The notes: generated by a model from the letters alone, not told the origin. Counted from the first letter of the stretch, positions 7,727-61,427 are shown. The stretch: 64,000 bases of DNA from Minisyncoccota bacterium (GCA_041667145.1 JBAYFP010000001.1:17958-81957), one strand, 5' to 3'. A program made the numbers and translations.

Positions 7727-8203
7727 AAATTATTTACTAGAACGCAAAAAGCTCCCAGCCAGCTTGATGGTTTTTAAGCCACCCGTATCCGTTTCCAGAT
7801 ACGACACAGTGAAGTGTAAACTCTGACTAGGAGTTCTTTATTCTTCACTGTGTTTTTAACCATACCTTATAGCTTTTTAAGCAATAAGGGTTAGGTCCTG
7901 TTTATTTAATTGTATTTATATTGTAACAAAAGAGAATTTGATAGTCTAATGTTTTTTTATTTGACTTTTAAAGCTTAGGAGTTAGAATAGAAATGTAGAG
8001 TTTTTAAAAAATAAAATATATGGCTTCTATTATTCAGAGAGTTTTTGTTTTTCCGCGAGACCAATAATTTTGGATACGCGAGATAGTCTTTAAAAGATTA
8101 AACCTGAAAATTGAATGCTAAATTATTACTAAAAAGATAACTCTTTTTAGGGTGTATTTAGTGTTTAATTTTTAGCTTAGGTCTAAAAATGAACAAATAA
8201 ATT

Positions 8204-8440: not shown

Positions 8441-10111
8441 ATGGATAAAGATTTTTATAAAAACTTAAAAGTAGCAGGTTATTCTAGAAAATCATCTGAA
8501 GCAGAAGATAGACAAGTACTTTCTATAGGCTCACAAAAAGATGAGATAGAGAAAATGAAAGAATTAAATGGAATTACAGACACAATTTATTACGAAGACA
8601 GTAAATCAGCAAAAACTCCAGGAATAAGAGATCATTTTTCAAACATGATACAGGATATAAAAAATGGTAAAAGAAATGCAATTGCATGTTGGAAACCCGA
8701 CAGACTTGCAAGAAATATGGATGAGGGTGGAGAGATTATAGATTTATTACAAAGAGGAATTATCAAATCAATAATTACGCCTAGTAAAACCTATACACCT
8801 TCTGAACCAAGCTGGTCATTACTTCTTGAATTTGGTATGGCTAATCAGTTTAGTCGTGATTTATCTGTAAACGTAAAAAGAGGTCAAAATAAAAAAGCTA
8901 GAATGGGTATTCCACATGGATTAGCAAAAATAGGTTTTTTGAATGACAAAACTGAAGAAAAAGGAAATAGAAAATGGTTGATTGACGAAAAAAGATTTCG
9001 AATAATAAAAGAGGTATTTAAGGTATATCTAACTGGTAATTATTCTGGAGGTCAAATGTATGATCTAGCAATAAGAGCCGGACTTACTACACCAAAACAC
9101 AAACATAGTGGTGGTAATTCAATAACCCATTCTAGAATATATACAATATTAAAAGATACAATATATGCTGGTTTTTTTCATCAAGGAGGAGAAAGATACG
9201 AGTTAGATAAAACCTTACCTAGAATTATTACCGAAGATGAACACGAGAAAGTACTTAGAATGCTTTCTGGTAAAAATATACCAAAAACACAAACTCATCA
9301 ATCGATGTATGGCGGTTTTATAATATCACCTCAAAATAAATCCATAGGTACAGACTGTAAATTTCAAATTATATGTGAGTGTAAATACAAATTTTCTTAT
9401 ATTAATAAAACTCATTGTCCAAAATGTGGAAAAGAAATAATTTTAATAAAAAATCCAAAATATCTTGAGTATGAATATTATTACAATGTTGCCTTGAAAA
9501 AGAAAAAGTGGTCAATTAAAAATATTTCACAAAGTAAAGTTACTGATTTTTTATTAGAATTTGCGGATAAGTTTTCAATGTCCCCCGCTCTTGCAAATTG
9601 GTCCAGACGCCATATCCATGAAATTCATGATTCTGAAGTTGAATCAAAATTAGTGGTTGTAGAAAGTCAAAAGGAAAGGATTGAACAACTAGAAACAAAA
9701 AAGGAAAGATACCGTAATATGTTAGCTGATGAGATGATAGAAAGAGAAGAATACGAACATGACACAAAGAAATTTAGCGCCGAAATAGAAAAAATTAAAC
9801 AAAATTCACAAAACCAAGTAAATTGGCTACAAGAAGCTGAAAAAATAATTGACTTGGGGTTAGAAATGAAAAAAATAATCAAAAATGGAACCACAATGGC
9901 AAAAAGAGAGATACTTTCTAAACTCGGTTCGAACCTAATCTGGGACGAGGAAGAACTCAATATTATCAACAAAAAACCAATCCAAGTGCTGATCGATGGA
10001 CTTCTTTGGGCCAAACAAAAAAATCCTAAGTTCGAACCTAGTTCTATAGTTGATACATCAAGTCAGAATGATGTTTTTGAGGACATTCGTCCTATCTTGC
10101 TCCGGGGGTAG
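8441..10111 (+). CDS. large serine recombinase (resolvase/invertase catalytic domain + recombinase domain + zinc ribbon)
   Basis: N-terminal AGYSRKSSEAEDRQ..SIGSQ catalytic-serine motif, DRLAR, C-terminal CPKCGKE zinc ribbon; 556 aa; 3' end overlaps the tRNA 3' end. Confidence 0.85.
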   Translation: MDKDFYKNLKVAGYSRKSSEAEDRQVLSIGSQKDEIEKMKELNGITDTIYYEDSKSAKTPGIRDHFSNMIQDIKNGKRNAIACWKPDRLARNMDEGGEIIDLLQRGIIKSIITPSKTYTPSEPSWSLLLEFGMANQFSRDLSVNVKRGQNKKARMGIPHGLAKIGFLNDKTEEKGNRKWLIDEKRFRIIKEVFKVYLTGNYSGGQMYDLAIRAGLTTPKHKHSGGNSITHSRIYTILKDTIYAGFFHQGGERYELDKTLPRIITEDEHEKVLRMLSGKNIPKTQTHQSMYGGFIISPQNKSIGTDCKFQIICECKYKFSYINKTHCPKCGKEIILIKNPKYLEYEYYYNVALKKKKWSIKNISQSKVTDFLLEFADKFSMSPALANWSRRHIHEIHDSEVESKLVVVESQKERIEQLETKKERYRNMLADEMIEREEYEHDTKKFSAEIEKIKQNSQNQVNWLQEAEKIIDLGLEMKKIIKNGTTMAKREILSKLGSNLIWDEEELNIINKKPIQVLIDGLLWAKQKNPKFEPSSIVDTSSQNDVFEDIRPILLRG

Positions 10112-10416
10112 GGATCGAACCTACGACCAATCGCTTACACTTTATCTTCTATTACTAGAAGTGTGGACTATATCATCTCCATGTTCATAACTTATGAATT
10201 TAGGAGCAAGGCGCTTCGCGCTCTAATAAATATTAGAGAGCTACTCCAAAATGGATAGTCTCTACACCTTCCTCAATTTTGTAATTGAGGCTTGGCTCGG
10301 GATTACCCTAAAAGGGCTTCCCCGAATTCACCTTGTTGTTCAACCTACCTTTTGATAGGAAGCTGCGTAATTTTTTATCGACACAGGCGACCGCTCTACC
10401 GCTGAGCTACCCCGGA
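10100..10416 (-). tRNA. tRNA (probably Asn-GUU) interrupted by a group I intron in the anticodon loop
   Basis: 5' exon TCCGGGGTAGCTCAGCGGTAGAGCGGTCGCCTGT (10383-10416) and 3' exon TAAGCGATTGGTCGTAGGTTCGATCCCTACCCCCGGAG (10100-10137) fold into a 72-nt cloverleaf with anticodon loop CUGUUAA; exact splice junction not resolvable by eye. Confidence 0.7.
10138..10382 (-). ncRNA. group I intron (IC3-like, Azoarcus/cyanobacterial tRNA intron type)
   Basis: contains AATCCCGAGCCAAGCC and GGAAGGTGTAGAGACTATCC, matching the conserved P7/P3 region (GAGCCAAGC, GAAGGUGUAGAGACUA) of Azoarcus tRNA-Ile and cyanobacterial tRNA-Leu introns. Confidence 0.7.
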
Positions 10417-10561
10417 ATGTATTTAATTAATGAAAGAACTTTAATTATCTTAACAGAAAATGAGTAAAAAACAATAGAGTAGATTTATTATTGAATTTAA
10501 AGTATAATATGAATTATATTATTAATAATCAAAATCATAACCGTTTAAGGCGGTAAATTAT

Positions 10562-20412: not shown

Positions 20413-21317
20413 TTTTTATAATCTATCTCTTTTCCCCCTTCTGGAATAATCTTTTTTATTATAAACTGGTTATTTTCAAGTATCGCATCTGTAATTATTA
20501 TTCTTTTGCCATTCTTAAAAAAGAAAGTTCGGGGCCAAGTAGCATAAGCTCTGAATTTATTATAATTATTTACCCCATCATCATTTAAATTTATAAACCC
20601 GTCTTCTTTCTTAATTTTCTTGCAATAGGTGGCTTGAGATTCGTTTTGTTTTTCTCCCCCTGCGAAGGGGGAGTGTCCAGAGGACGAGGGGGTCTTTAAT
20701 ATTTTTACTAAAAGTTCTCCCCCAATTTTTATCATACGTTTACGTAATTCTCCTGCTTTTTCATCTGGCTTAATTTCTATTTTTTCTACAGCTATGATAG
20801 GTCCTGTATCCATCTTGTATTCCATCTTTTGGATAGTGACGCCCGTTTCTGTATCCCCATTTAATATAGCTGATTCTACAGGAGAGGCTCCACGATATTT
20901 GGGAAGTAGAGAATAATGAATGTTTATAGAAACTAGTTTAGGTAGATTTATTAAATCTTCTGGAATTATTTTTCCATAGGCGACTACCAGAAAGAAATCT
21001 GGTAAGGATTTGCTTTTAGCGGGTGTCTCGCAGGCTGACGAGCCGAGAGGCAGCGCTGTGCCAGTAGGCACAGACAGCGACCCGATAAAAGTAGAATCCT
21101 TACCAGATAGAATCTCGGGTTGCAGATAGGGGACATTGTTATTTATTGCCCAAACTTTTACGGGTGGGGGAGTTATGAGCATTTTACGTCCTTGTGGTTT
21201 ATCGGGAGCAGTGATTATAAGCGATGGCATATAGCCGTTTTCTTTTAGAATTTCTAATGTTTCGGAAGCGACATCTGGTGTTCCCCAGAATATGAAATTT
21301 AAATTTTTTGTATTCAC
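20409..21317 (-). CDS. fmt: methionyl-tRNA formyltransferase
   Basis: HYSLLPKYRGASP motif, N-terminal formyltransferase domain; carries two GC-rich palindromic inserts. Confidence 0.85.
   Translation of the reverse strand: MNTKNLNFIFWGTPDVASETLEILKENGYMPSLIITAPDKPQGRKMLITPPPVKVWAINNNVPYLQPEILSGKDSTFIGSLSVPTGTALPLGSSACETPAKSKSLPDFFLVVAYGKIIPEDLINLPKLVSINIHYSLLPKYRGASPVESAILNGDTETGVTIQKMEYKMDTGPIIAVEKIEIKPDEKAGELRKRMIKIGGELLVKILKTPSSSGHSPFAGGEKQNESQATYCKKIKKEDGFINLNDDGVNNYNKFRAYATWPRTFFFKNGKRIIITDAILENNQFIIKKIIPEGGKEIDYKN
20654..20673. repeat. GC-rich hairpin CTCCCCCTGCGAAGGGGGAG inside fmt
   Basis: 8-bp perfect stem in AT-rich coding context; encodes extra low-complexity residues. Confidence 0.45.
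21054..21079. repeat. GC-rich palindrome CGCTGTGCCAGTAGGCACAGACAGCG inside fmt
   Basis: 7-bp stem CTGTGCC/GGCACAG inside an insertion encoding GSLSVPTGTALPLGSS. Confidence 0.4.
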
Positions 21318-21349: not shown

Positions 21350-21931
21350 CTATTTTACAGGTAGCTCCTCTTTTATATCTTTAGCATGGTCGATAAAGAG
21401 GATACCTTTTAGGTGATCTGTTTCATGTTGGAATATTTGAGCTAGAAGGCCAGATGCACCTCTTTGGAATTTTTTGCTGTTTTCATCATAAGCAGTAATT
21501 AGAGCCTTTTTTGATCTATGAGTTTTTCCATAGAGCCATCTGACGGACAAACATCCTTCAGGAAGCCATTCTTTTTCACGAGATAATTTTGAAATTTTTG
21601 GATTGATAAAAACTAGATCTTTTAGCATTTCTTCATTTTGGATTTTTTCAAATTCTTGTTGGCCTCCTACAAAATCTTTGTGAAAAATCTTTCCTGATAC
21701 TACGAAAATAGAAAGTTTGTATCCTATCTGAGGGGCAGCGATAGCTACCCCGTCACTTTGGCTTTTCAAAGCTTGAGACATTTCTTTTATTATTTTTCTT
21801 ATCTTAAGAGTTTTAATCTCGCCAATCGGTACATCTTTTGTATTTTGATGTAAAACTCTATCTTCCCCGCCTGCAACGCTATGCGTAGCATTGCGGGCAG
21901 GTTTTTGATTAGCTTGTAAAATTTTCTTCAT
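21350..21931 (-). CDS. def: peptide deformylase
   Basis: GVAIAAPQIG, EGCLS, HETDHL motifs; def-fmt operon order. Confidence 0.85.
   Translation of the reverse strand: MKKILQANQKPARNATHSVAGGEDRVLHQNTKDVPIGEIKTLKIRKIIKEMSQALKSQSDGVAIAAPQIGYKLSIFVVSGKIFHKDFVGGQQEFEKIQNEEMLKDLVFINPKISKLSREKEWLPEGCLSVRWLYGKTHRSKKALITAYDENSKKFQRGASGLLAQIFQHETDHLKGILFIDHAKDIKEELPVK
21866..21901. repeat. 36-bp GC-rich palindromic element in frame inside def (family B)
   Basis: CCCGCCTGCAACGCTATGCGTAGCATTGCGGGCAGG; near-identical copy at 58111-58146 inside valS. Confidence 0.7.
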
Positions 21932-23861: not shown

Positions 23862-23991
23862 GTTGCTATTTTAGCACAAAAAAGTCTTGACACAATGGGG
23901 GAATATGTTTTGGAATAAATTATTCCCCTACACCAGGTGAAGGGGAATCACCACCCCCAACCCCCTCCTCCACAAGGAGGGGATGAAGTTA

Positions 23992-44927: not shown

Positions 44928-46811
44928 ATGAAATTAGGAAATATTAGAAACTTCAGCATAATAGCTCATATTGATCATGGGAAGAGTACCTTGGCAGATC
45001 GAATGCTTGAGATTACTCATACTATTCCAGAACGTAAAATGCGCGACCAGGTGTTAGATACTATGGAGCTTGAACGTGAACGTGGAATTACTATCAAAAT
45101 GCAACCTGTGAGGATGGAATTTTCCCCGAATTCCCCGAAACCAGGTTTAGGGGGAATTCCCCTAAACCTGGTTTCGGGGAAAAATGAGACTTATGTTTTA
45201 AACCTTATAGACACTCCTGGACATATAGATTTCTCTTATGAGGTATCTCGCGCCCTAAAGGCTGTAGAGGGGTCTATTTTGTTGGTTGATGCAACACAGG
45301 GAGTACAGGCGCAAACACTTACTACGCTTAATATGGCGCGTGAGGGAGGCATCAAGATCATCCCTGTTCTGTCTAAAATAGATTCACCTTTGGCCCGTGT
45401 GGAAGAGGTAAAAAAGGAGGTTATAGAGCTTTTAAATTGTGATTCTAATGATGTTCTTATGGTCTCAGGACGTACAGGTGAAGGAGTGGAAAATTTGTTA
45501 CAAGAGATCATAAAACGTGTTCCACCACCAAAAGAAAATTACCAACAAGGTGAAAATATTTTACGTGCTCTTGTTTTTGATTTTAAATATTCAAGCCATA
45601 AAGGTGTGATAGTTTTTATTCGATTACTTGATGGGCAAGTAAAGAAAGGAGAGAGTTTAATTTTTTCAGTTTCAGGAGAGAAATTTAGTTCTCTTGAAGT
45701 TGGTACTTTTTCTCCTGAAGAAACTCCTAGGGATTTTTTGTCAGCAGGAGACACAGGATACATTGTCACAGGTATTAAAAGGCCAGGTATAGCTTCTGTT
45801 GGAGATACCATTACTAAAGAAAAAAATCCATTACCTCCGCTTCCTGGATACATGCAACCGATGCCTGTCGTTTGGGCTTCTGTTTTTCCTGAAGACGCGG
45901 ATGACTTTATGGAGTTAAAGGCCTCATTAGGTAAATTAAAACTTTCGGATTCTTCTTTTTCTTATGAGGAAGAATCTTCAGGTTCATTGGGGCGGGGTTT
46001 TCGTTGTGGATTTTTAGGAATGTTACATTTGGAAATAATTACAGAAAGATTAAGACGAGAATTTAATTTAAAATTAGTAATCACAACACCTTCTATTACT
46101 TACGAAGTTGTTATGAAAAATCCTTCTATAGTTTCAGGGCATTTTGGTAAAAAAGTAAAAATATATTCTCCATATTTTTTCCCAGATGATGGAAATATAG
46201 AAACAGTTCAAGAGCCTTGGGTTGATGTAAAAATAATTTCTCCAGCAAAATTTTTAGGTAATATTATGCAACTTCTTTTCGACCATGAAGCGGAAGTAAG
46301 AGAAACAGATAATTTTGGTAATAATCGTTCTTCTTTATCTGTCAGAATGCCACTTCGTGAACTTATGCGTAATTTTTTTGATGAATTAAAAAGTGTAACA
46401 TCTGGCTATGGATCTATTTCTTATAAAATAGGGGAAATGAGAGAAGCGAATGTCACTCGACTCGATATTCTTGTAGCGGATGAAGTCGTTCCAGCTTTTT
46501 CGAGAGTTATAGCAAAAAAGAGAGCGGAAGAAGAAGCAGAAAAAGCTGTTGAAAGGCTAGAAGGTATTTTACCAAGACAGATGTTTACTTTAAAAATACA
46601 GGGTAGAGCTTTAGGGCGTATTATTTCTTCACGTACAATGTCTGGCATGAAAAAAGATGTCACCCAGCACATGTATGGTGGAGATATCACTCGTAAAATG
46701 AAGCTTCGTGAGAAACAGAAAAAAGGGAAGAAGAAAATGAAAGAGCGAGGCAGGGTAAATATCCCACAGGATGTATTCTTAAAAATGATGCGTTCGGGGA
46801 ATGATAATTAG
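44928..46811 (+). CDS. lepA: elongation factor 4 (LepA)
   Basis: GTPase motifs AHIDHGKST, DTPGH; LepA C-terminal domain; carries in-frame palindromic insert. Confidence 0.9.
   Translation: MKLGNIRNFSIIAHIDHGKSTLADRMLEITHTIPERKMRDQVLDTMELERERGITIKMQPVRMEFSPNSPKPGLGGIPLNLVSGKNETYVLNLIDTPGHIDFSYEVSRALKAVEGSILLVDATQGVQAQTLTTLNMAREGGIKIIPVLSKIDSPLARVEEVKKEVIELLNCDSNDVLMVSGRTGEGVENLLQEIIKRVPPPKENYQQGENILRALVFDFKYSSHKGVIVFIRLLDGQVKKGESLIFSVSGEKFSSLEVGTFSPEETPRDFLSAGDTGYIVTGIKRPGIASVGDTITKEKNPLPPLPGYMQPMPVVWASVFPEDADDFMELKASLGKLKLSDSSFSYEEESSGSLGRGFRCGFLGMLHLEIITERLRREFNLKLVITTPSITYEVVMKNPSIVSGHFGKKVKIYSPYFFPDDGNIETVQEPWVDVKIISPAKFLGNIMQLLFDHEAEVRETDNFGNNRSSLSVRMPLRELMRNFFDELKSVTSGYGSISYKIGEMREANVTRLDILVADEVVPAFSRVIAKKRAEEEAEKAVERLEGILPRQMFTLKIQGRALGRIISSRTMSGMKKDVTQHMYGGDITRKMKLREKQKKGKKKMKERGRVNIPQDVFLKMMRSGNDN
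45124..45179. repeat. 46-bp near-perfect palindrome inserted in frame in lepA (family C)
   Basis: CCCCGAAACCAGGTTTAGGGG-gaatt-CCCCTAAACCTGGTTTCGGGG (45133-45179), with a partial extra half-copy 45124-45132; adds about 14 aa before DTPGH. Confidence 0.75.
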
Positions 46812-50403: not shown

Positions 50404-51717
50404 ATGGATAAAAAGATTACAAAAATTGTGGGAGAAGAGATTAAGGATTCGAGAGGGAACCCGACTATTAAAGTGACTGTTTGGGTAGGTGATGAATCAG
50501 GCAGTTTTGCTGTGCCGTCTGGAGCCTCTACGGGGGCTCATGAAGCTCATGAATTAAGAGACCCCGAACCAGAGCAAGCTCGGTACGGGGCAGGTCCAGA
50601 TGGCAAGGGTGGTATGAAGAAAGCTATTTGGAACGTAGAGAATATAATTGCTCCGGCATTGATTGGTCAAAATGTTTTAAATCAAGAAGTAATAGATAGA
50701 ATGATGATTAAATTAGATGGCACTCCAAATAAAGACAATCTCGGAGGGAATGCTCTTATTGGTGTCTCTATCGCTTGTGCTAAAGTAGCAGCAAAAGTTT
50801 TTAGTTTAGAAACTTTTGAGTATTTGCGAACTTTAGCAAAAATAAAACCTTCAAGAAAAATTCCTTATTTGTATATGAATTTAATAAATGGGGGGAAGCA
50901 TGCGAAAAATGAGTTGGCCTTCCAAGAATATCACATAGTACCTAGCACTGAAGATGTAAGCGAAGCAATGGAAATGGGTATCAAAATACAAAATAGTTTG
51001 AAAGAAATTATTAGTAAAGACCTTGGGGGAGAATCAATAGTATTTGGTGATGAGGGTGGTTTTGCTCCTAAAATAAGCGACGTTAAAAAACCTTTAGAAT
51101 ATCTAAGTAAAGCAATAAAACAAAATAATCTTGTAGACAAAGTACGTTTAGCATTAGACGTCGCTAGTTCTTCATTTTTTGAAAATCCTGCCCGCAATGC
51201 TTCAGGCATAGCTGATGCAGGCGGGGGGAAATATAAAATTGATAGTAAAGAAATAACGAAAGAAGAGTTGATAAGTGTTTATAATTCTTTAATTAGGGAA
51301 TTTGATTTACTTTCAATAGAAGATCCGTTTGATGAGGAAGATTTTTCCAGTTTTAGAAAATTAAGAGAAAATAATAAAAAATTATTTAGACCTAGGTCTA
51401 GTCTTTTAGTGGTAGGGGATGACCTGACTGTCACAAATAAAATTTTATTGGAAAAAGCGATAGGAGAAAAGAGTATTAATGCAATGATAATTAAACCAAA
51501 TCAGATAGGTACTCTTACGGAAACTCTTGAAACGATGAAAAAAGCACGAGAGAATGATGTTGAGTTGATTATTAGCCACCGAAGCGGGGAAACGGAGGAT
51601 GATTTTATTGCTGACCTTGCCTATGCTTTTGGTTGTTTTGGATTAAAAGCTGGTTCTCCCCAAAAACCTGAAAGAATGGTGAAGTATAAAAGATTAATTA
51701 AAATTTCAGAAATGTAA
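50404..51717 (+). CDS. eno: enolase
   Basis: DSRGNPTIKV, VGDDLTVTN, SHRSGETED motifs; carries GTACT-family insertion. Confidence 0.9.
   Translation: MDKKITKIVGEEIKDSRGNPTIKVTVWVGDESGSFAVPSGASTGAHEAHELRDPEPEQARYGAGPDGKGGMKKAIWNVENIIAPALIGQNVLNQEVIDRMMIKLDGTPNKDNLGGNALIGVSIACAKVAAKVFSLETFEYLRTLAKIKPSRKIPYLYMNLINGGKHAKNELAFQEYHIVPSTEDVSEAMEMGIKIQNSLKEIISKDLGGESIVFGDEGGFAPKISDVKKPLEYLSKAIKQNNLVDKVRLALDVASSSFFENPARNASGIADAGGGKYKIDSKEITKEELISVYNSLIREFDLLSIEDPFDEEDFSSFRKLRENNKKLFRPRSSLLVVGDDLTVTNKILLEKAIGEKSINAMIIKPNQIGTLTETLETMKKARENDVELIISHRSGETEDDFIADLAYAFGCFGLKAGSPQKPERMVKYKRLIKISEM
50562..50594. repeat. GTACT-family element in frame inside eno
   Basis: CCCCGAACCAGAGCAAGCTCGGTACGGGGCAGG, same loop (AGAGCAA(A)GCTC) and right arm (GTACGGGGCAGG) as 44881-44916. 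Confidence 0.55.
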
Positions 51718-57368: not shown

Positions 57369-58079
57369 TTATTCTACGCTCATTCTTCTTAATTTTTCAA
57401 AAAGTAACATAATAATAATTGTGACGACCCAAAGAAAACCTAACACACTTAAAGAATTACTTCCGTTATTCTCCATTATAAAAAAATTAAACGCACTATG
57501 CAAGGTGATAGCCAAGATAATACCTACAAAAACATAAATATACTTAGTAAATTTACCCATAAAGAAGGAAAGTCCTAATGCTATACCTATGATACCAGTC
57601 GATACAGCGTGAAGGAGCGTGGATCCAAGGAATCTAAGCTGTCCTGTGAGTAAGCCTACAGTCGTTTGGTCTAGTGATAATGGTTTTATTAAAAAAAGAG
57701 TATTTTCGAGGGCTGCGAATCCTAATGCTGCTGTAATCAAGAATACTGGCCAGTCTACAGGTTCATCTACGCGGTTTGTCTTGTAGAGTAGGATAACCAC
57801 ACATAGATATTTTACTAATTCTTCGATGCTTGCCCAGCCAATGATTTGCCATTCGTGTGAACTTACATTATTTTGAATTAATTTTTGGAGTGGTATAACG
57901 ATGATAATAGAAAACATCCCAAGAAAAAATATTGCAGTTAAAAGTCCTTTGGGTTCGGGCTTGTTTTGGTCGTCTTCTCTAAGCCAAAACCAAAGCCAAA
58001 AGAGTGCTGGGGCTATGCCTCCTAAAAGTGCTAAACCTAAAATTTTTGGATCAGTTGTCATTAAGGGGCCATTTAGCAA
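57369..58079 (-). CDS. PrsW-family intramembrane protease
   Basis: polytopic; EELVKY (EExxK), FAALENTLF (FxxxE) and HxxxN-type motifs. Confidence 0.6.
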   Translation of the reverse strand: MLNGPLMTTDPKILGLALLGGIAPALFWLWFWLREDDQNKPEPKGLLTAIFFLGMFSIIIVIPLQKLIQNNVSSHEWQIIGWASIEELVKYLCVVILLYKTNRVDEPVDWPVFLITAALGFAALENTLFLIKPLSLDQTTVGLLTGQLRFLGSTLLHAVSTGIIGIALGLSFFMGKFTKYIYVFVGIILAITLHSAFNFFIMENNGSNSLSVLGFLWVVTIIIMLLFEKLRRMSVE

Positions 58080-60249
58080 TCATTAATAAATCATTCTTCT
58101 CTCGTTTTTTCCCGCCTGCATCACTATGCGAAGCATTGCGGGCAGGAATTATAGACCAGATTTCTTCAGTGACAAAAGGCATAAATGGATGGAGAATTAT
58201 CAAAAGTGTATTTAAGTGAGTAAATAAAAGTGTTTTTGCTGAAAGAGAATTTTGGTTTTTAATAATTTTTGTTTTTGATCTTTCTATTAAAATATCTGCA
58301 AAAGTATGCCAGAAATAATGATAAAGCTTTTCAGCAACGATTGAAAAACGGAATTCATTCATTTCTTTAGAGATTTCAGAAACGAGTTTATTTAGTTCTT
58401 CATGACTTTCTTTATCTTCAGTGTCTAGATTATCTAAATTTATAGAATTTAAGTCTTTTGTGTTTTCTATAACAAATCGTGAAGCATTCCAGATTTTATT
58501 AGCAAATTTCTTATAACCACGGATATCGTCCTCATTTAATTTTAGATCATTCCCGGGAGTATTGCCGACGACCATAGCCATGCGTAAAGCATCATTGCCA
58601 TGTTTTTCTATTATATCTAATGGATCTATTGCTTTATCTCCCATTGATTTGGACATCTTTTTTCCATCGGCTGTCCGGATCATTCCGTGTAGATATACAT
58701 TTTTAAATGGTATGTCACCCAATAAATATTGTGACATAAGTATCATTCGAGCAATCCAAAAAAATAAAATATCATGTCCTGTTTCAAGTACGCTTATAGG
58801 ATGATATGTTTTAAGATCTTTTGTCTGTTCTGGCCAACCTAGGGTAGAGAAAGTCCAAAGTCCAGAGGAAAACCAAGTATCTAATGTATCTTCATCTTGT
58901 TTCCATTCAGAACCTACAGGAGCCTCTATGTTACAATATATTTCATCTTGTTTGTACCACACAGGGATTCTATGTCCATACCATATTTGGCGAGATATAC
59001 ACCAGTCGTGTAGGTTTTCAATCCAATTATAGTAGACTTTTTCAAAATGATTGGGAATTATTTTTATTTTTCCGTCACGTACTGGTTCGAGCATCAATTC
59101 TTTTAGAGATTTATTACTACGGGAAGAAATTTTCTTATTTACATCTATAAACCATTGGAGCATTATTTGTGGTTCTATAATTCCACCAGTTCGTTCAGCA
59201 GTAGCAACTCTGTTTATATAATTTTCATCAACAGATATAAGTAACCCTTTGCTCTTTAATTTTTCAACAATTTTTTCACGTGCATCTAGGATTTTCATCC
59301 CCGCAAACTCCTGAGCTATAGGAAGCAATTTGCCATATTTGTCTATTATTTGTTCTTTGTCCAATTTGTATTTTTCTGCTAGAGCAAAGTCTTCATGTGA
59401 ATGCCATGGAGTGATGGTCATGACTCCAGTACCAAACTCCATGTCGATCATTTCATCTTTTATGATAGTCGCTTCTATAGGCCCATTTATCCATTCAAGT
59501 TTTATTTTTTGCATGTGCTTCCAGTCTTTATATCTTTTATCATCTGGATGCATCACCACATATTTATCTCCAAATTTTGTTTCAGGTCGCGCTGTACTTA
59601 TCTCAAATGGGCCATATTTAAAAGTATAAAATTTGTTTTTTCTTTCTTCGTATACTATTTCGTCATCTGAGATGACTGTTTGACCCTTTGGGTCCCAATT
59701 GACCATACGATTCCCTCGATAAATAAGACCATCGTCATACATTTGTTTGAATGCAGTTTTAACAGCGAGATTGCGTTTTTCATCGAGAGTAAAAGCTTCT
59801 CTAGACCAGTCGAGAGAAGCTCCCATTTTTTTTGCTTGGCCAACTATTGTGTTGTGTGAATCTTGAGCATATTTTTCTACTTTTTTTAGAAATTCTTCAC
59901 GGCCTATATCATTTTTACGAATACCTTCTTTTTCTAACAGTTTTTCGACTTTTGATTGAGTAGCTATAGCTGCATGGTCTGTCCCAGGCAACCATAAAGT
60001 ATTTTTACCATTCATTCGAGCATAGCGGATCATGATATCTTCAATGATTAAAGTGAGTGCATGTCCTGTGTGTAGACTACCTGTCACATTCGGTGGAGGA
60101 AGGACTATAGAAAAAGATTCTGTATTAGATTTTGTTATTCCATTTTTTATGCAAATATCTGGATTAAAAAAACCAGACTCTTCCCAGAGCTTGTATATTT
60201 TATCCTCAGTTTCTTTTGGGTCGTAGGGCTTTAGTAATCTCTCATCCAT
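58051..60249 (-). CDS. valS: valyl-tRNA synthetase
   Basis: HIGH (SLHTGHAL), KMSKS (KMSKSMGD), WCISRQIWYGHRIPVWY; C-terminal tail carries family B palindromic element. Confidence 0.8.
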   Translation of the reverse strand: MDERLLKPYDPKETEDKIYKLWEESGFFNPDICIKNGITKSNTESFSIVLPPPNVTGSLHTGHALTLIIEDIMIRYARMNGKNTLWLPGTDHAAIATQSKVEKLLEKEGIRKNDIGREEFLKKVEKYAQDSHNTIVGQAKKMGASLDWSREAFTLDEKRNLAVKTAFKQMYDDGLIYRGNRMVNWDPKGQTVISDDEIVYEERKNKFYTFKYGPFEISTARPETKFGDKYVVMHPDDKRYKDWKHMQKIKLEWINGPIEATIIKDEMIDMEFGTGVMTITPWHSHEDFALAEKYKLDKEQIIDKYGKLLPIAQEFAGMKILDAREKIVEKLKSKGLLISVDENYINRVATAERTGGIIEPQIMLQWFIDVNKKISSRSNKSLKELMLEPVRDGKIKIIPNHFEKVYYNWIENLHDWCISRQIWYGHRIPVWYKQDEIYCNIEAPVGSEWKQDEDTLDTWFSSGLWTFSTLGWPEQTKDLKTYHPISVLETGHDILFFWIARMILMSQYLLGDIPFKNVYLHGMIRTADGKKMSKSMGDKAIDPLDIIEKHGNDALRMAMVVGNTPGNDLKLNEDDIRGYKKFANKIWNASRFVIENTKDLNSINLDNLDTEDKESHEELNKLVSEISKEMNEFRFSIVAEKLYHYFWHTFADILIERSKTKIIKNQNSLSAKTLLFTHLNTLLIILHPFMPFVTEEIWSIIPARNASHSDAGGKKREKNDLLMIAKWPLNDN
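58111..58146. repeat. 36-bp family B palindromic element in frame at the valS C-terminus
   Basis: CCCGCCTGCATCACTATGCGAAGCATTGCGGGCAGG; encodes PARNASHSDAGG, cf. def PARNATHSVAGG. Confidence 0.7.
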
Positions 60250-60281: not shown

Positions 60282-61427
60282 CTACTTTAGACGTAAGTTT
60301 CCCTTCGCTTTAATTTTTGAGGTTTTGGCTAGTTTATCTTTGTTTTTTAAAAACTGTAAATATCCGACTATCCCTATCATTATAGAGTTATCTCCTGATA
60401 ATTCCTTTTTTGGGAAAAATAATTTTGTGTTTTTATCCATAACCTTTTTCATTTGCCTCTGTAGGTGTCTATTACAAGCAACTCCACCGGCAACAATTAA
60501 AGTTTTAGCTTTATATTTTTCTTTTGCCTTGATTGTTTTATAAATTAGAGTTTCTACGACAGCGTTTTCAAATTCTAAAGCTATAGCTTGTTTTGTTTTT
60601 TCATCTTTTAAAATATTTGGATTTTCTTTTTCTAAGTCACGTATTAAATAGAGTACCGCTGTTTTTAATCCTGAAAATGAGAAATCAAAATTTTTACTAT
60701 AAAGCATAGGGCGGGGAAGAGAATTTTTTTTAGCTTTGCCTGTATGCTTTTGTGAATGGTCTGGCCGGGGTAGGGGACCCGGGGAACCGAGGACCTGAGC
60801 AAAAGCATCGGGCAAGGCTAATCTTGCCTCCTCAGCTAATTTTGAAATTTTTGGGCCACCAGGGTATTCTAACCCGAGCATTCGTGCGACTTTATCGTAT
60901 GCTTCACCAGCTGCGTCATCTAAGGTTTCACCGATGATTTTATATTTTTCAAAGTTTTTTGTAATAATTAGTTCTGTATGTCCTCCAGAGACAAGAAGTG
61001 ACAAAATAGGGGATTCTATTTTTGGAATATTAAACTTTCCTTTGTTTTTTCCAAAGACAGATAATATGTGTCCTTCCATATGATTTACAGGTATGAGTGG
61101 GACTTTCCATTTTTCGGCTAGTTCTTTTGCAAAGGTTATCCCAGTCCAGAGTGAAGGTTCTAGCCCTGGTCCATATGTCACAGCTATTGCATCTATTTTT
61201 TCTTTGGTGATTTTTTTTAGTACTTGCTCTAAAAGTATAGGTAGATTTTTTATATGTTCTCTTTTTGCAAGCATAGGAAAAACTCCACCATATTGTGCAT
61301 GGATTTTAACTTGTGAATTTGACACATTGGCTAGTATTTTAAAAGAGGTATTTTCTTTATTTCCCTTTACCTCCATTACGGTTAGAGCCGTGTCGTCGCA
61401 GCTTGTTTCAATACTTAAAATTCTCAT
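60282..61427 (-). CDS. tsaD: tRNA N6-adenosine threonylcarbamoyltransferase TsaD
   Basis: MRILSIETSCDDTA, HMEGH, VAGGVACN motifs; carries GC-rich insertion. Confidence 0.85.
   Translation of the reverse strand: MRILSIETSCDDTALTVMEVKGNKENTSFKILANVSNSQVKIHAQYGGVFPMLAKREHIKNLPILLEQVLKKITKEKIDAIAVTYGPGLEPSLWTGITFAKELAEKWKVPLIPVNHMEGHILSVFGKNKGKFNIPKIESPILSLLVSGGHTELIITKNFEKYKIIGETLDDAAGEAYDKVARMLGLEYPGGPKISKLAEEARLALPDAFAQVLGSPGPLPRPDHSQKHTGKAKKNSLPRPMLYSKNFDFSFSGLKTAVLYLIRDLEKENPNILKDEKTKQAIALEFENAVVETLIYKTIKAKEKYKAKTLIVAGGVACNRHLQRQMKKVMDKNTKLFFPKKELSGDNSIMIGIVGYLQFLKNKDKLAKTSKIKAKGNLRLK
60754..60798. repeat. family E GC-rich element inside tsaD
   Basis: coding strand CAGGTCCTCGG-TTCCCCGGGTCCCCTACCCCGG-CCAGACCATTC; encodes inserted GSPGPLPRPDHSQ. 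Confidence 0.45.

Follow-up and report, generated by a model that had tools for sequence, protein, structure and literature searches.

In-frame GC-rich hairpins in essential genes of a candidate phyla radiation genome and their linkage to a small GIY-YIG nuclease gene at tRNA genes

A 64,000-nucleotide stretch of a Minisyncoccota bacterium genome (GCA_041667145.1, JBAYFP010000001.1:17958-81957; hereafter the window, analysed over all of its 64 kb) carries three copies of a short, GC-rich, imperfect hairpin, each lying in frame inside an essential protein gene. The window belongs to the candidate phyla radiation (CPR), is Paceibacterota/Nomurabacteria-like, and has a GC content of 33%. The host genes encode peptide deformylase (Def), enolase and valyl-tRNA synthetase (ValRS) and lie on both strands. 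They and the hairpin copies are listed below, with bit scores from a covariance model of the hairpin family.

21350-21931, minus strand: def, peptide deformylase, 193 aa (PF01327 in homologs)
21866-21901, minus strand: hairpin copy 1, 36 nt, A/T subtype, 65.2 bits
50404-51717, plus strand: eno, enolase, 437 aa
51187-51225, plus strand: hairpin copy 3, 39-nt subtype, 50.5 bits
58051-60249, minus strand: valS, valyl-tRNA synthetase, 732 aa (Pfam tRNA-synt_1 and Anticodon_1)
58111-58146, minus strand: hairpin copy 2, 36 nt, T/A subtype with one G-T wobble, 61.9 bits

Copy 1 reads CCTGCCCGCAATGCTACGCATAGCGTTGCAGGCGGG on its sense strand and encodes PARNATHSVAGG, placed after residue 10 of Def. Copy 2 (CCTGCCCGCAATGCTTCGCATAGTGATGCAGGCGGG) encodes PARNASHSDAGG in the anticodon-binding domain of ValRS (Anticodon_1, residues 612-729), 19 codons before the stop, and copy 3 (CCTGCCCGCAATGCTTCAGGCATAGCTGATGCAGGCGGG) encodes PARNASGIADAGG in a surface loop of enolase. 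All three are in sense orientation, start at a codon boundary and are read in frame 0 to give a peptide of the form PARNA..AGG. Replication strand was rejected as the cause of this orientation, since sense copies lie on both strands despite a uniform cumulative GC skew. A first-pass annotation of the window had already described an identical 36-bp palindrome in def and valS. Its coordinates stand, as does its reading of both copies in the same frame of minus-strand open reading frames (ORFs), but the two are not identical: they differ at 3 of 36 positions and agree at 33. The def copy, which it placed in an N-terminal extension, is an insertion within the protein, and the valS copy, assigned to a C-terminal tail, is indeed near the end but occupies a domain loop. 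The third copy had been missed. A degenerate search of the window for the 36-mer returned exactly two matches, in def and valS, and none in 100 dinucleotide shuffles; the 39-nt enolase variant came out of a scan for GC-rich islands, and the covariance model, run over the whole window with filters off, found these three copies only. At its end, valS overlaps the start of the next ORF (57369..58079, a PrsW-like protease) by 29 nt (58051-58079). ValRS terminates directly after its anticodon-binding domain, and the same is seen in CPR orthologs.

The motif is widely repeated. An exact pattern in which both arms were fixed (25 specified bases), applied to one genome per species, detected at least 117 loci in other genomes, and together with the third window copy these bear out the earlier suspicion of a repeated element. 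Except for loci retrieved by means of the nuclease protein described below, the locus statistics in this text are drawn from the matches listed among these loci. The CPR hosts listed include Nomurabacteria, Giovannonibacteria, Staskawiczbacteria, Taylorbacteria, Moranbacteria, Magasanikbacteria, Daviesbacteria, Roizmanbacteria, Levybacteria, Collierbacteria and Berkelbacteria, that is, members of the Parcubacteria and Microgenomates classes plus Berkelbacteria. A further 33 listed loci are GC-rich (about 50-62%) and come from the Planctomycetes-Verrucomicrobia-Chlamydiae (PVC) group, namely Lentisphaerae, Kiritimatiellia, Verrucomicrobia and Chthoniobacterales. Some third-party labels of metagenome-assembled genomes (MAGs), such as Gammaproteobacteria, Bdellovibrionales and one 4-kb Woesearchaeota contig, may be unreliable and were not relied upon. 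The genomes were assembled independently, in many studies. The element had no BLAST match in phage and plasmid collections. IMG/VR contained the element in 2 contigs and the nuclease subfamily in 1, and with these low counts the system is not phage-borne. No Rfam family was matched at gathering or permissive thresholds, no Pfam family was matched by the encoded peptides in two frames, and no description was found in the searchable literature by topic, by element 14-mers or by peptides.

Copies in the GC-rich PVC genomes are mostly intergenic, and nesting is frequent, either of one copy in another or of a copy within the loop of a local hairpin unrelated to it. At loci L011, L020, L022, L036, L038/L094, L060, L086 and L098, the site is often the loop of an inverted repeat of 7-9 bp that is specific to the locus or, alternatively, an opposite-orientation copy of the element itself. 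This nesting hints at insertion into exposed hairpin loops. Flanking inverted repeats are limited to a subset of copies, mostly in GC-rich hosts, and were therefore rejected as a general feature of the element. Tandem abutting copies are found at L063 and L101.

The family consists of imperfect hairpins of 36-40 nt, with outer arms CCYGCCYGC ... GCRGGCRGG and an inner stem-loop that varies in sequence but is always base-paired. Every copy folds strongly whichever strand is considered; the minimum free energy of the def hairpin is -23.5 kcal/mol as RNA (z = -5.2) and -12.6 kcal/mol as DNA (z = -4.0). The strong fold proposed in the first-pass annotation is thereby upheld by energies and z-scores, but not the fully symmetric register in which it was drawn, as covariation shows another. 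The conserved register is CCTG + CCCGC / AA / TGC / T / NCGC-ATA-GCGN' / T / GCA / G / GCGGG, in other words a 5' CCTG overhang, a CCCGC/GCGGG helix, an AA/G internal loop, a TGC/GCA helix, a T-T mismatch, a 4-bp inner stem and an ATA loop. Among 124 copies, N/N' is T/A in 22, A/T in 21 and G/C in 9. Pair 16-26 is U-A in 10, A-U in 5, G-C in 2 and G-U in 1 of 20 distinct 36-nt variants, and the covariation score of these variants was reached by 0 of 500 shuffles. The 39-nt class has compensatory variants of its own (TCAGC/GCTGA, ACAGC/GCTGT, CTAGT/GCTAG and TAAGT/GCTTA). In the CCAGC...GCTGG variants of L155, L163 and L203 an alternative outer helix, CCTGC/GCAGG, covaries too, and the outer register may therefore slip. 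Paired amino acid changes (T..V, S..D, A..A) track base pairing and not protein logic. Wobble pairs have no strand asymmetry: C-A is as frequent as G-U in the sense strand, and the data therefore do not separate RNA from DNA as the relevant form.

These observations leave next to no credence for a resemblance by chance or at the protein level, for an artefact of assembly or for a stray CRISPR repeat. The length is typical of CRISPR repeats and there is a sub-threshold resemblance to the Rfam direct repeat DR20 (15.9 bits versus a gathering threshold of 42, E = 0.54), but the copies are single and in frame, with no repeat-spacer arrays, and a CRISPR direct repeat was rejected on these grounds. 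In addition, no shuffle gave a match, nucleotide identity goes far beyond what the peptide would need, residues change in pairs that follow base pairing, and the copies recur across separate assemblies.

Comparison with orthologs identifies the three window elements as insertions, because close orthologs do without the residues; the earlier expectation that relatives would not conserve them holds for Def and ValRS, and most enolases are likewise empty. Among 120 Def homologs at 70-88% identity, 115 read MKKIVQK/EDR (a slash marks the insertion site) and 5 have the insert at the same site; the orthologs at 86-88% identity are empty. At the DNA level, the empty site CAA AAA/GAA GAT corresponds to CAA AAA, element, GAA GAT, with no duplication. 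Among the Def orthologs P0121, P0134, P0175, P0197, P0216 and P0237, those with the insert have in common an additional QA(N/V)Q stretch directly ahead of it, which insert-free alleles lack; in P0237 the stretch is present and YGKGA replaces the element. The closest ValRS homolog among the matches listed, P0241 (73% identity), is empty and reads EEIWSII/KKRHKDDL, and none of the 75 ValRS homologs listed contains the element. Most of 120 enolase homologs at 67-78% identity read SSFYEN/GLYKV, 5 have PARNAxxxADAGG at the same place, 3 have PARHGG or PARTGG, and a few have other short forms one codon upstream. The enolase insertion is codon-exact (empty AAT/GGT, filled AAT, 39 nt, GGG). The short form CCTGCCCGC-CAT-GGCGGG (PARHGG) is an internal deletion that retains the outer arms.

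Target-site duplications are absent from the filled/empty comparisons of eno, def and the tRNA fragments described below, and this absence ruled out a miniature inverted-repeat transposable element. An AlphaFold model of enolase (mean predicted local distance difference test score, pLDDT, 85.9; predicted template modelling score, pTM, 0.88) falls below a pLDDT of 50 only at residues 56-68, 265-273 and 328-330. These segments are three lineage-specific inserts, and the hairpin element is the one at 265-273. The enolase copy is thus modelled as a low-confidence loop, and the element is predicted to add a loop of 12-13 residues to essential proteins.

A strong bias in frame and length marks the copies in protein genes. 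Among the listed loci, 59 of the 81 copies that have a multiple-of-three length and lie in ORFs of at least 120 codons are in sense frame 0. With stricter ORF calls, AT-rich hosts have 39 of 73 multiple-of-three copies in clear long ORFs, and 34 of these 39 are in sense frame 0 (binomial p = 3e-19 versus one in five open frames); the frame analysis for which the first-pass annotation had called thus speaks for tolerated in-frame insertion. Copies of 35, 37, 38 and 41 nt lie mostly outside clear ORFs (Fisher p = 0.008). The frame 0 peptide is polar, starts with Pro and ends with Gly-Gly (PARNA[STA]..[DVA]AGG). The other open frames give LPAMLRIAMQA, PACIAMRSIAGR, PPASLCEALRA and RLHRYAKHCGQ, which are hydrophobic or contain Cys, and the sixth contains a stop. 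Insertion sites are near protein ends in 13 of 34 cases versus 19% expected. They have a mild AAA/GAA-like (Lys/Glu) preference, which selection for hydrophilic sites could explain.

ORF clustering across all 117 listed loci detected one recurrent neighbour that is not a housekeeping gene, a small GIY-YIG protein. No RAYT-like (repetitive extragenic palindrome-associated tyrosine transposase) or other transposase recurred in this clustering, a search aimed at PF01797 across the loci not being part of it. In 7 of the 117 loci, which had been selected by the hairpin pattern itself, the distance between hairpin and start of the GIY-YIG ORF is 0-70 nt. Relatives of the nuclease were gathered from metagenomes by peptide patterns within the ORF only, which yielded 80 loci, 77 of them assessable; tblastn confirmed 386 intact GIY-YIG relatives in metagenomes. 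A hairpin of the family (CCYGCCYGC-N12-62-GCRGGCRGG) occurs no more than 130 nt upstream of the start codon in 60 of the 77 loci, at a median gap of 16 nt (range 5-58), and either upstream or just downstream of the gene in 70. The rest of the same loci contain 7 hairpins in 141 kb, a background of 0.0065 per 130 nt.

The nuclease is a stand-alone protein of 79 aa that consists of the catalytic domain only (PF01541 GIY-YIG, E = 8e-18), and Pfam detects no DNA-binding domain joined to it. Its nearest solved relatives are the UPF0213 protein BH0048 and then the structure-specific endonuclease SLX1. In about 50 of 60 loci scanned, a tRNA gene follows on the same strand, mostly within about 40 nt; tRNA-Gln is the most common, and Leu, Asn, Lys, Glu, Val, Thr, Ile and Ala tRNAs also occur. 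At 30 loci or more, the 5' end of this tRNA recurs in the 12 nt that precede the hairpin, and in 26 of these the 6 nt after the hairpin continue the tRNA sequence, the fragment being precisely interrupted. In order, the cassette comprises a tRNA 5' fragment that the hairpin splits, a spacer of 5-58 nt, the nuclease gene and an intact tRNA gene. Within the fragment, the hairpin is a clean insertion at varying positions, with no duplication. Single assemblies can contain both kinds of copy, solo and cassette, on one contig for L037 and L112 and in one MAG for L035 and L040. Tandem arrangements were observed in the group L109 (6869-7451), L182, L186 and L176/L179: cassettes follow each other as hairpin-GIY-hairpin-GIY in L109, and there are also tandem tRNA-Gln or tRNA-Val genes, the first of which is followed by one more tRNA fragment split by a hairpin. 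At L026 and L117, another GIY-YIG subfamily (..LKGGxG..) is flanked by different short hairpins with GCT(T/C)AGC loops, which suggests that nuclease-hairpin pairs differ between subfamilies. An independent published survey predicted that GIY-YIG genes have passed out of Patescibacteria into other bacteria (PMC12455944).

The solo palindromes are, with a probability of roughly 60% as judged from sequence, orphan copies of a hairpin family whose home is the GIY-YIG/tRNA cassette. They resemble the orphans of repetitive extragenic palindromic (REP) sequences, because the hairpin precedes the nuclease gene in most of the loci retrieved through that gene. On this reading, the GIY-YIG nuclease would recognise the hairpin or a cruciform, and cutting followed by repair would copy, spread and homogenise hairpins, a logic like that of REP/RAYT with a different enzyme. 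Hairpin copies alone would scatter through the chromosome, inserting precisely and without target-site duplication. The survivors in gene-dense, AT-rich CPR genomes would be those doing the least harm: of multiple-of-three length, oriented in sense, read in the single frame with a polar product, and placed in loops or at protein ends. Inserted copies would then be translated as disordered loops of 12-13 residues. A wider proposal is tentative and may well fail: a REP/RAYT-like two-part mobile system, made up of an SLX1/UPF0213-type minigene at tRNA genes and its cognate 36-40-nt hairpin and spread across CPR and PVC bacteria, would seed 12-13-residue loops in essential proteins and actively maintain them by conversion or selection.

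Several points weigh against the orphan-copy reading. The nuclease gene was not found in the 64-kb window or in the 9.6 kb past its right end, and a GIY-YIG ORF is absent from all 33 GC-rich PVC loci listed. The protein has little beyond its catalytic domain and no obvious DNA-binding module. To our knowledge, GIY-YIG enzymes cut DNA and do not join it, and the copying mechanism must come from repair. The orientation of the hairpin relative to the nuclease gene is even (22 versus 22, with 12 symmetric), and the cassette at L175 has the tRNA-fragment duplication and no hairpin. The linkage could also mean that the hairpin is an operator, a 5' untranslated region (5'-UTR) structure or a preferred landing pad.

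Such points would suit an independent selfish palindrome, resembling the Rickettsia palindromic elements (RPEs) and moved by another or a host mechanism such as replication slippage or template switching, with only a secondary link to the nuclease. Solo copies make up more than 90% of the total, a GIY-YIG gene is absent from 74 kb of this genome and from the PVC loci, one cassette does without the hairpin, and random orientation is expected for a purely structural role. The subset of copies that lie in the loops of unrelated local hairpins in GC-rich hosts suggests that exposed single strands are targeted, not a protein-specified site. The hairpin could then be an autoregulatory operator, a 5'-UTR stabiliser or a terminator; it could break up the flanking tRNA repeat and so prevent deletion of the cassette; or the cassette could be a favoured landing site. 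The GIY-YIG enzyme I-TevI represses its own gene via an operator that mimics its target. We nevertheless regard an independent palindrome as rather unlikely, as an enrichment of about 120-fold upstream of one gene family, in many tRNA contexts and across nucleases of 55-74% identity, is hardly that of a passive landing pad. Moreover, the rest of the intergenic DNA in the same loci is nearly free of hairpins, and no alternative enzyme was found.

The conservation of the element is a further point against the orphan-copy reading. At orthologous sites it is identical at 36/36, 36/39, 37/39 and 38/39 positions, whereas the same genes are otherwise 69-75% identical, with third positions at about 50% and synonymous codons at 46-56%; it also keeps GC-rich third codon positions in a genome of 33% GC. 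The five insert-bearing Def alleles are polyphyletic, each being nearest to insert-free alleles, and all share an extra ILQAxQK context. Neither the conservation nor the polyphyly is predicted by a purely selfish, decaying insertion. Recent co-conversion of flanks in Def was rejected as the cause of the conservation, as the codons adjoining the element differ between alleles. Selection in place, short-patch conversion or repeated site-specific insertion could each explain it.

If selection in place is taken at face value, the element would be a signal useful to the host and kept at each site, such as a DNA-level site bound by a structure-specific or nucleoid protein, a tag for self-recognition or uptake, or a hairpin in the mRNA that modulates how stable the transcripts of its host genes are or how they are translated. 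Besides the excess of element identity over synonymous codon matches elsewhere, the maintenance of the stem by compensatory changes, the higher frequency of copies near gene ends (13/34 versus 19%) and the sense orientation to transcription on both window strands would agree with this. A host signal is nonetheless quite improbable. Most Def, ValRS and enolase orthologs do without the element, and in some lineages copies decay or collapse to scars (L120, L129). An RNA-specific structure is not favoured by non-Watson-Crick pairs, in which C-A is as common as G-U; near-identical sequences in unrelated phyla fit a transferable parasite better, and gene conversion among copies would yield equal conservation.

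Among known systems, the RPEs reported by Ogata et al. in 2000 are said to be palindromic, to lie in frame in Rickettsia protein genes and also in non-coding DNA, and to have no internal transposase. The element is likewise a repeated palindrome in a reduced, AT-rich genome, in frame in essential genes and also non-coding, encoding a surface peptide and without a transposase within. The first-pass annotation had called it an RPE-like mobile palindrome that tolerates in-frame insertion, and the core of this idea is supported, but the element has one third of the RPE length and is not confined to a single genus. RPEs are about 100-150 bp long and confined to Rickettsia, whereas the arms of the 36-40-nt element are nearly the same throughout the CPR classes and PVC phyla in which it occurs, and the element is rich in GC although its host is AT-rich, is linked to a nuclease, and is much better conserved than its synonymous neighbours. 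It is set apart from the RPEs by length and host range, and not by a comparison with RPE consensus sequences.

REP sequences and REPINs (paired REP hairpins) with their RAYTs offer a likeness in the imperfect hairpin of 20-40 nt, in a conserved tetranucleotide beside the stem (here CCTG/CAGG), in many solo copies plus a few that flank one small nuclease-type gene, and in nested and tandem copies. The REP tetranucleotide, however, is GTAG. RAYTs are IS200/IS605-like Y1 HUH enzymes (PF01797), whereas the gene linked here is of the GIY-YIG type (PF01541). REPs are extragenic by definition and their families are species-specific; the copies in CPR hosts are mostly intragenic, including all three in the window, the copy beside the nuclease gene is embedded in a duplicated tRNA 5' fragment, and the hairpin family crosses phyla.

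GC clusters and double-hairpin elements of fungal mitochondria are short GC-rich palindromes that have spread in an AT-rich genome and can be in frame, as in yeast var1. They co-exist with GIY-YIG and LAGLIDADG homing endonuclease genes. Related fungal mitochondrial hairpins have been described (PMC7218506, PMC6140425). The fungal clusters differ in being organellar, in having other sequences and in having no known fixed hairpin-nuclease-tRNA cassette, whereas the hosts here are free-living or episymbiotic bacteria. Homing GIY-YIG genes such as the T4 seg genes and I-TevI are also small ORFs beside conserved genes with presence/absence variation, but the enzymes known from them have a DNA-binding domain of their own and are not known to spread any short hairpin. 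SLX1-type enzymes cut branched or hairpin-like DNA, by analogy the kind of substrate that the element would form. With regard to a GIY-YIG homing cassette, the catalytic domain is intact, and the only sign, an indirect one, of sequence-specific cleavage of empty targets and copying into them lies in the varied tRNA hosts and duplicated 5' fragments. We know of no function for UPF0213 proteins. No description of a duplicated tRNA 5' fragment with a hairpin inside was found in the searchable literature.

What is new is, above all, the GIY-YIG/tRNA cassette, next to a third copy, the spread across phyla, the covariation, the statistics on reading frame and the scars. In-frame palindromes have been a Rickettsia curiosity for 25 years without a known enzyme, and a candidate enzyme gene can now be named. 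The mechanism is testable with a 79-aa protein and a 36-nt hairpin. It bears on the origin of new surface loops in genome-reduced bacteria, on the role of UPF0213 proteins and on gene flow between CPR bacteria and their neighbours. For annotation, many of the short GC-rich islands and lineage-specific inserts of CPR genes, with several more in this window, are probably of this kind. If true, the two-part system would provide a first function for UPF0213 proteins and a major source of short lineage-specific inserts in CPR proteins.

Other GC-rich inserts were observed in the same genes and elsewhere in the window. Enolase has a second one at 50563-50594 (plus strand), which encodes EPEQARYGAGP, contains the hairpin CCCCGAACC..GGTACGGGG followed by CAGG, and occurs in 30 of 120 orthologs. 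The model shows it as disordered (residues 56-68); it has a 32-nt match in the unrelated locus L030, and probably represents another element family. Enolase also carries the short GC-rich insert KLFRPRS. Inserts of the form L[RH]Q[GDS]SGQA occur at three enolase positions in P0002, P0023, P0031, P0036, P0042, P0094, P0101, P0103 and P0108, and the C-terminal ..AQGKP.. tails of the ValRS orthologs P0241, P0242, P0248, P0252, P0264 and others look like the same DNA, TCAGGGCAAGCC, read in another frame. Together they suggest a second widespread in-frame element.

GC-rich, hairpin-forming islands within ORFs are also found at 20651-20697 and 21015-21085 (fmt, minus strand), 60750-60807 (tsaD, minus strand) and 23933-23986, with peptides that include SPFAGGE, a 24-aa stretch of GSLSVPTGTALPLGSSACETPAKS and LGSPGPLPRPDHSQ. 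In other genomes, L061 has an 87% match to the fmt_a island and L106 a 94% match to the tsaD island; because of these matches, both look like dispersed in-frame elements. Inside the lepA ORF (44928..46811), a perfect 23-bp inverted repeat (TTCCCCGAAACCAGGTTTAGGGG / CCCCTAAACCTGGTTTCGGGGAA; -46 kcal/mol) lies at 45131-45181 on the plus strand, and LepA lengths vary at orthologous loci (604, 627 and 661 aa). Two structured RNAs were detected on the minus strand. A LOOT RNA (Rfam RF03000, 77 bits versus a gathering threshold of 46) lies at 7766-7897, and a group I intron (RF00028, 66.7 bits) at 10145-10456 has GC-rich, tRNA-like flanks at about 10088-10129 and 10377-10420, apparently placing it within a tRNA gene that ARAGORN did not call.

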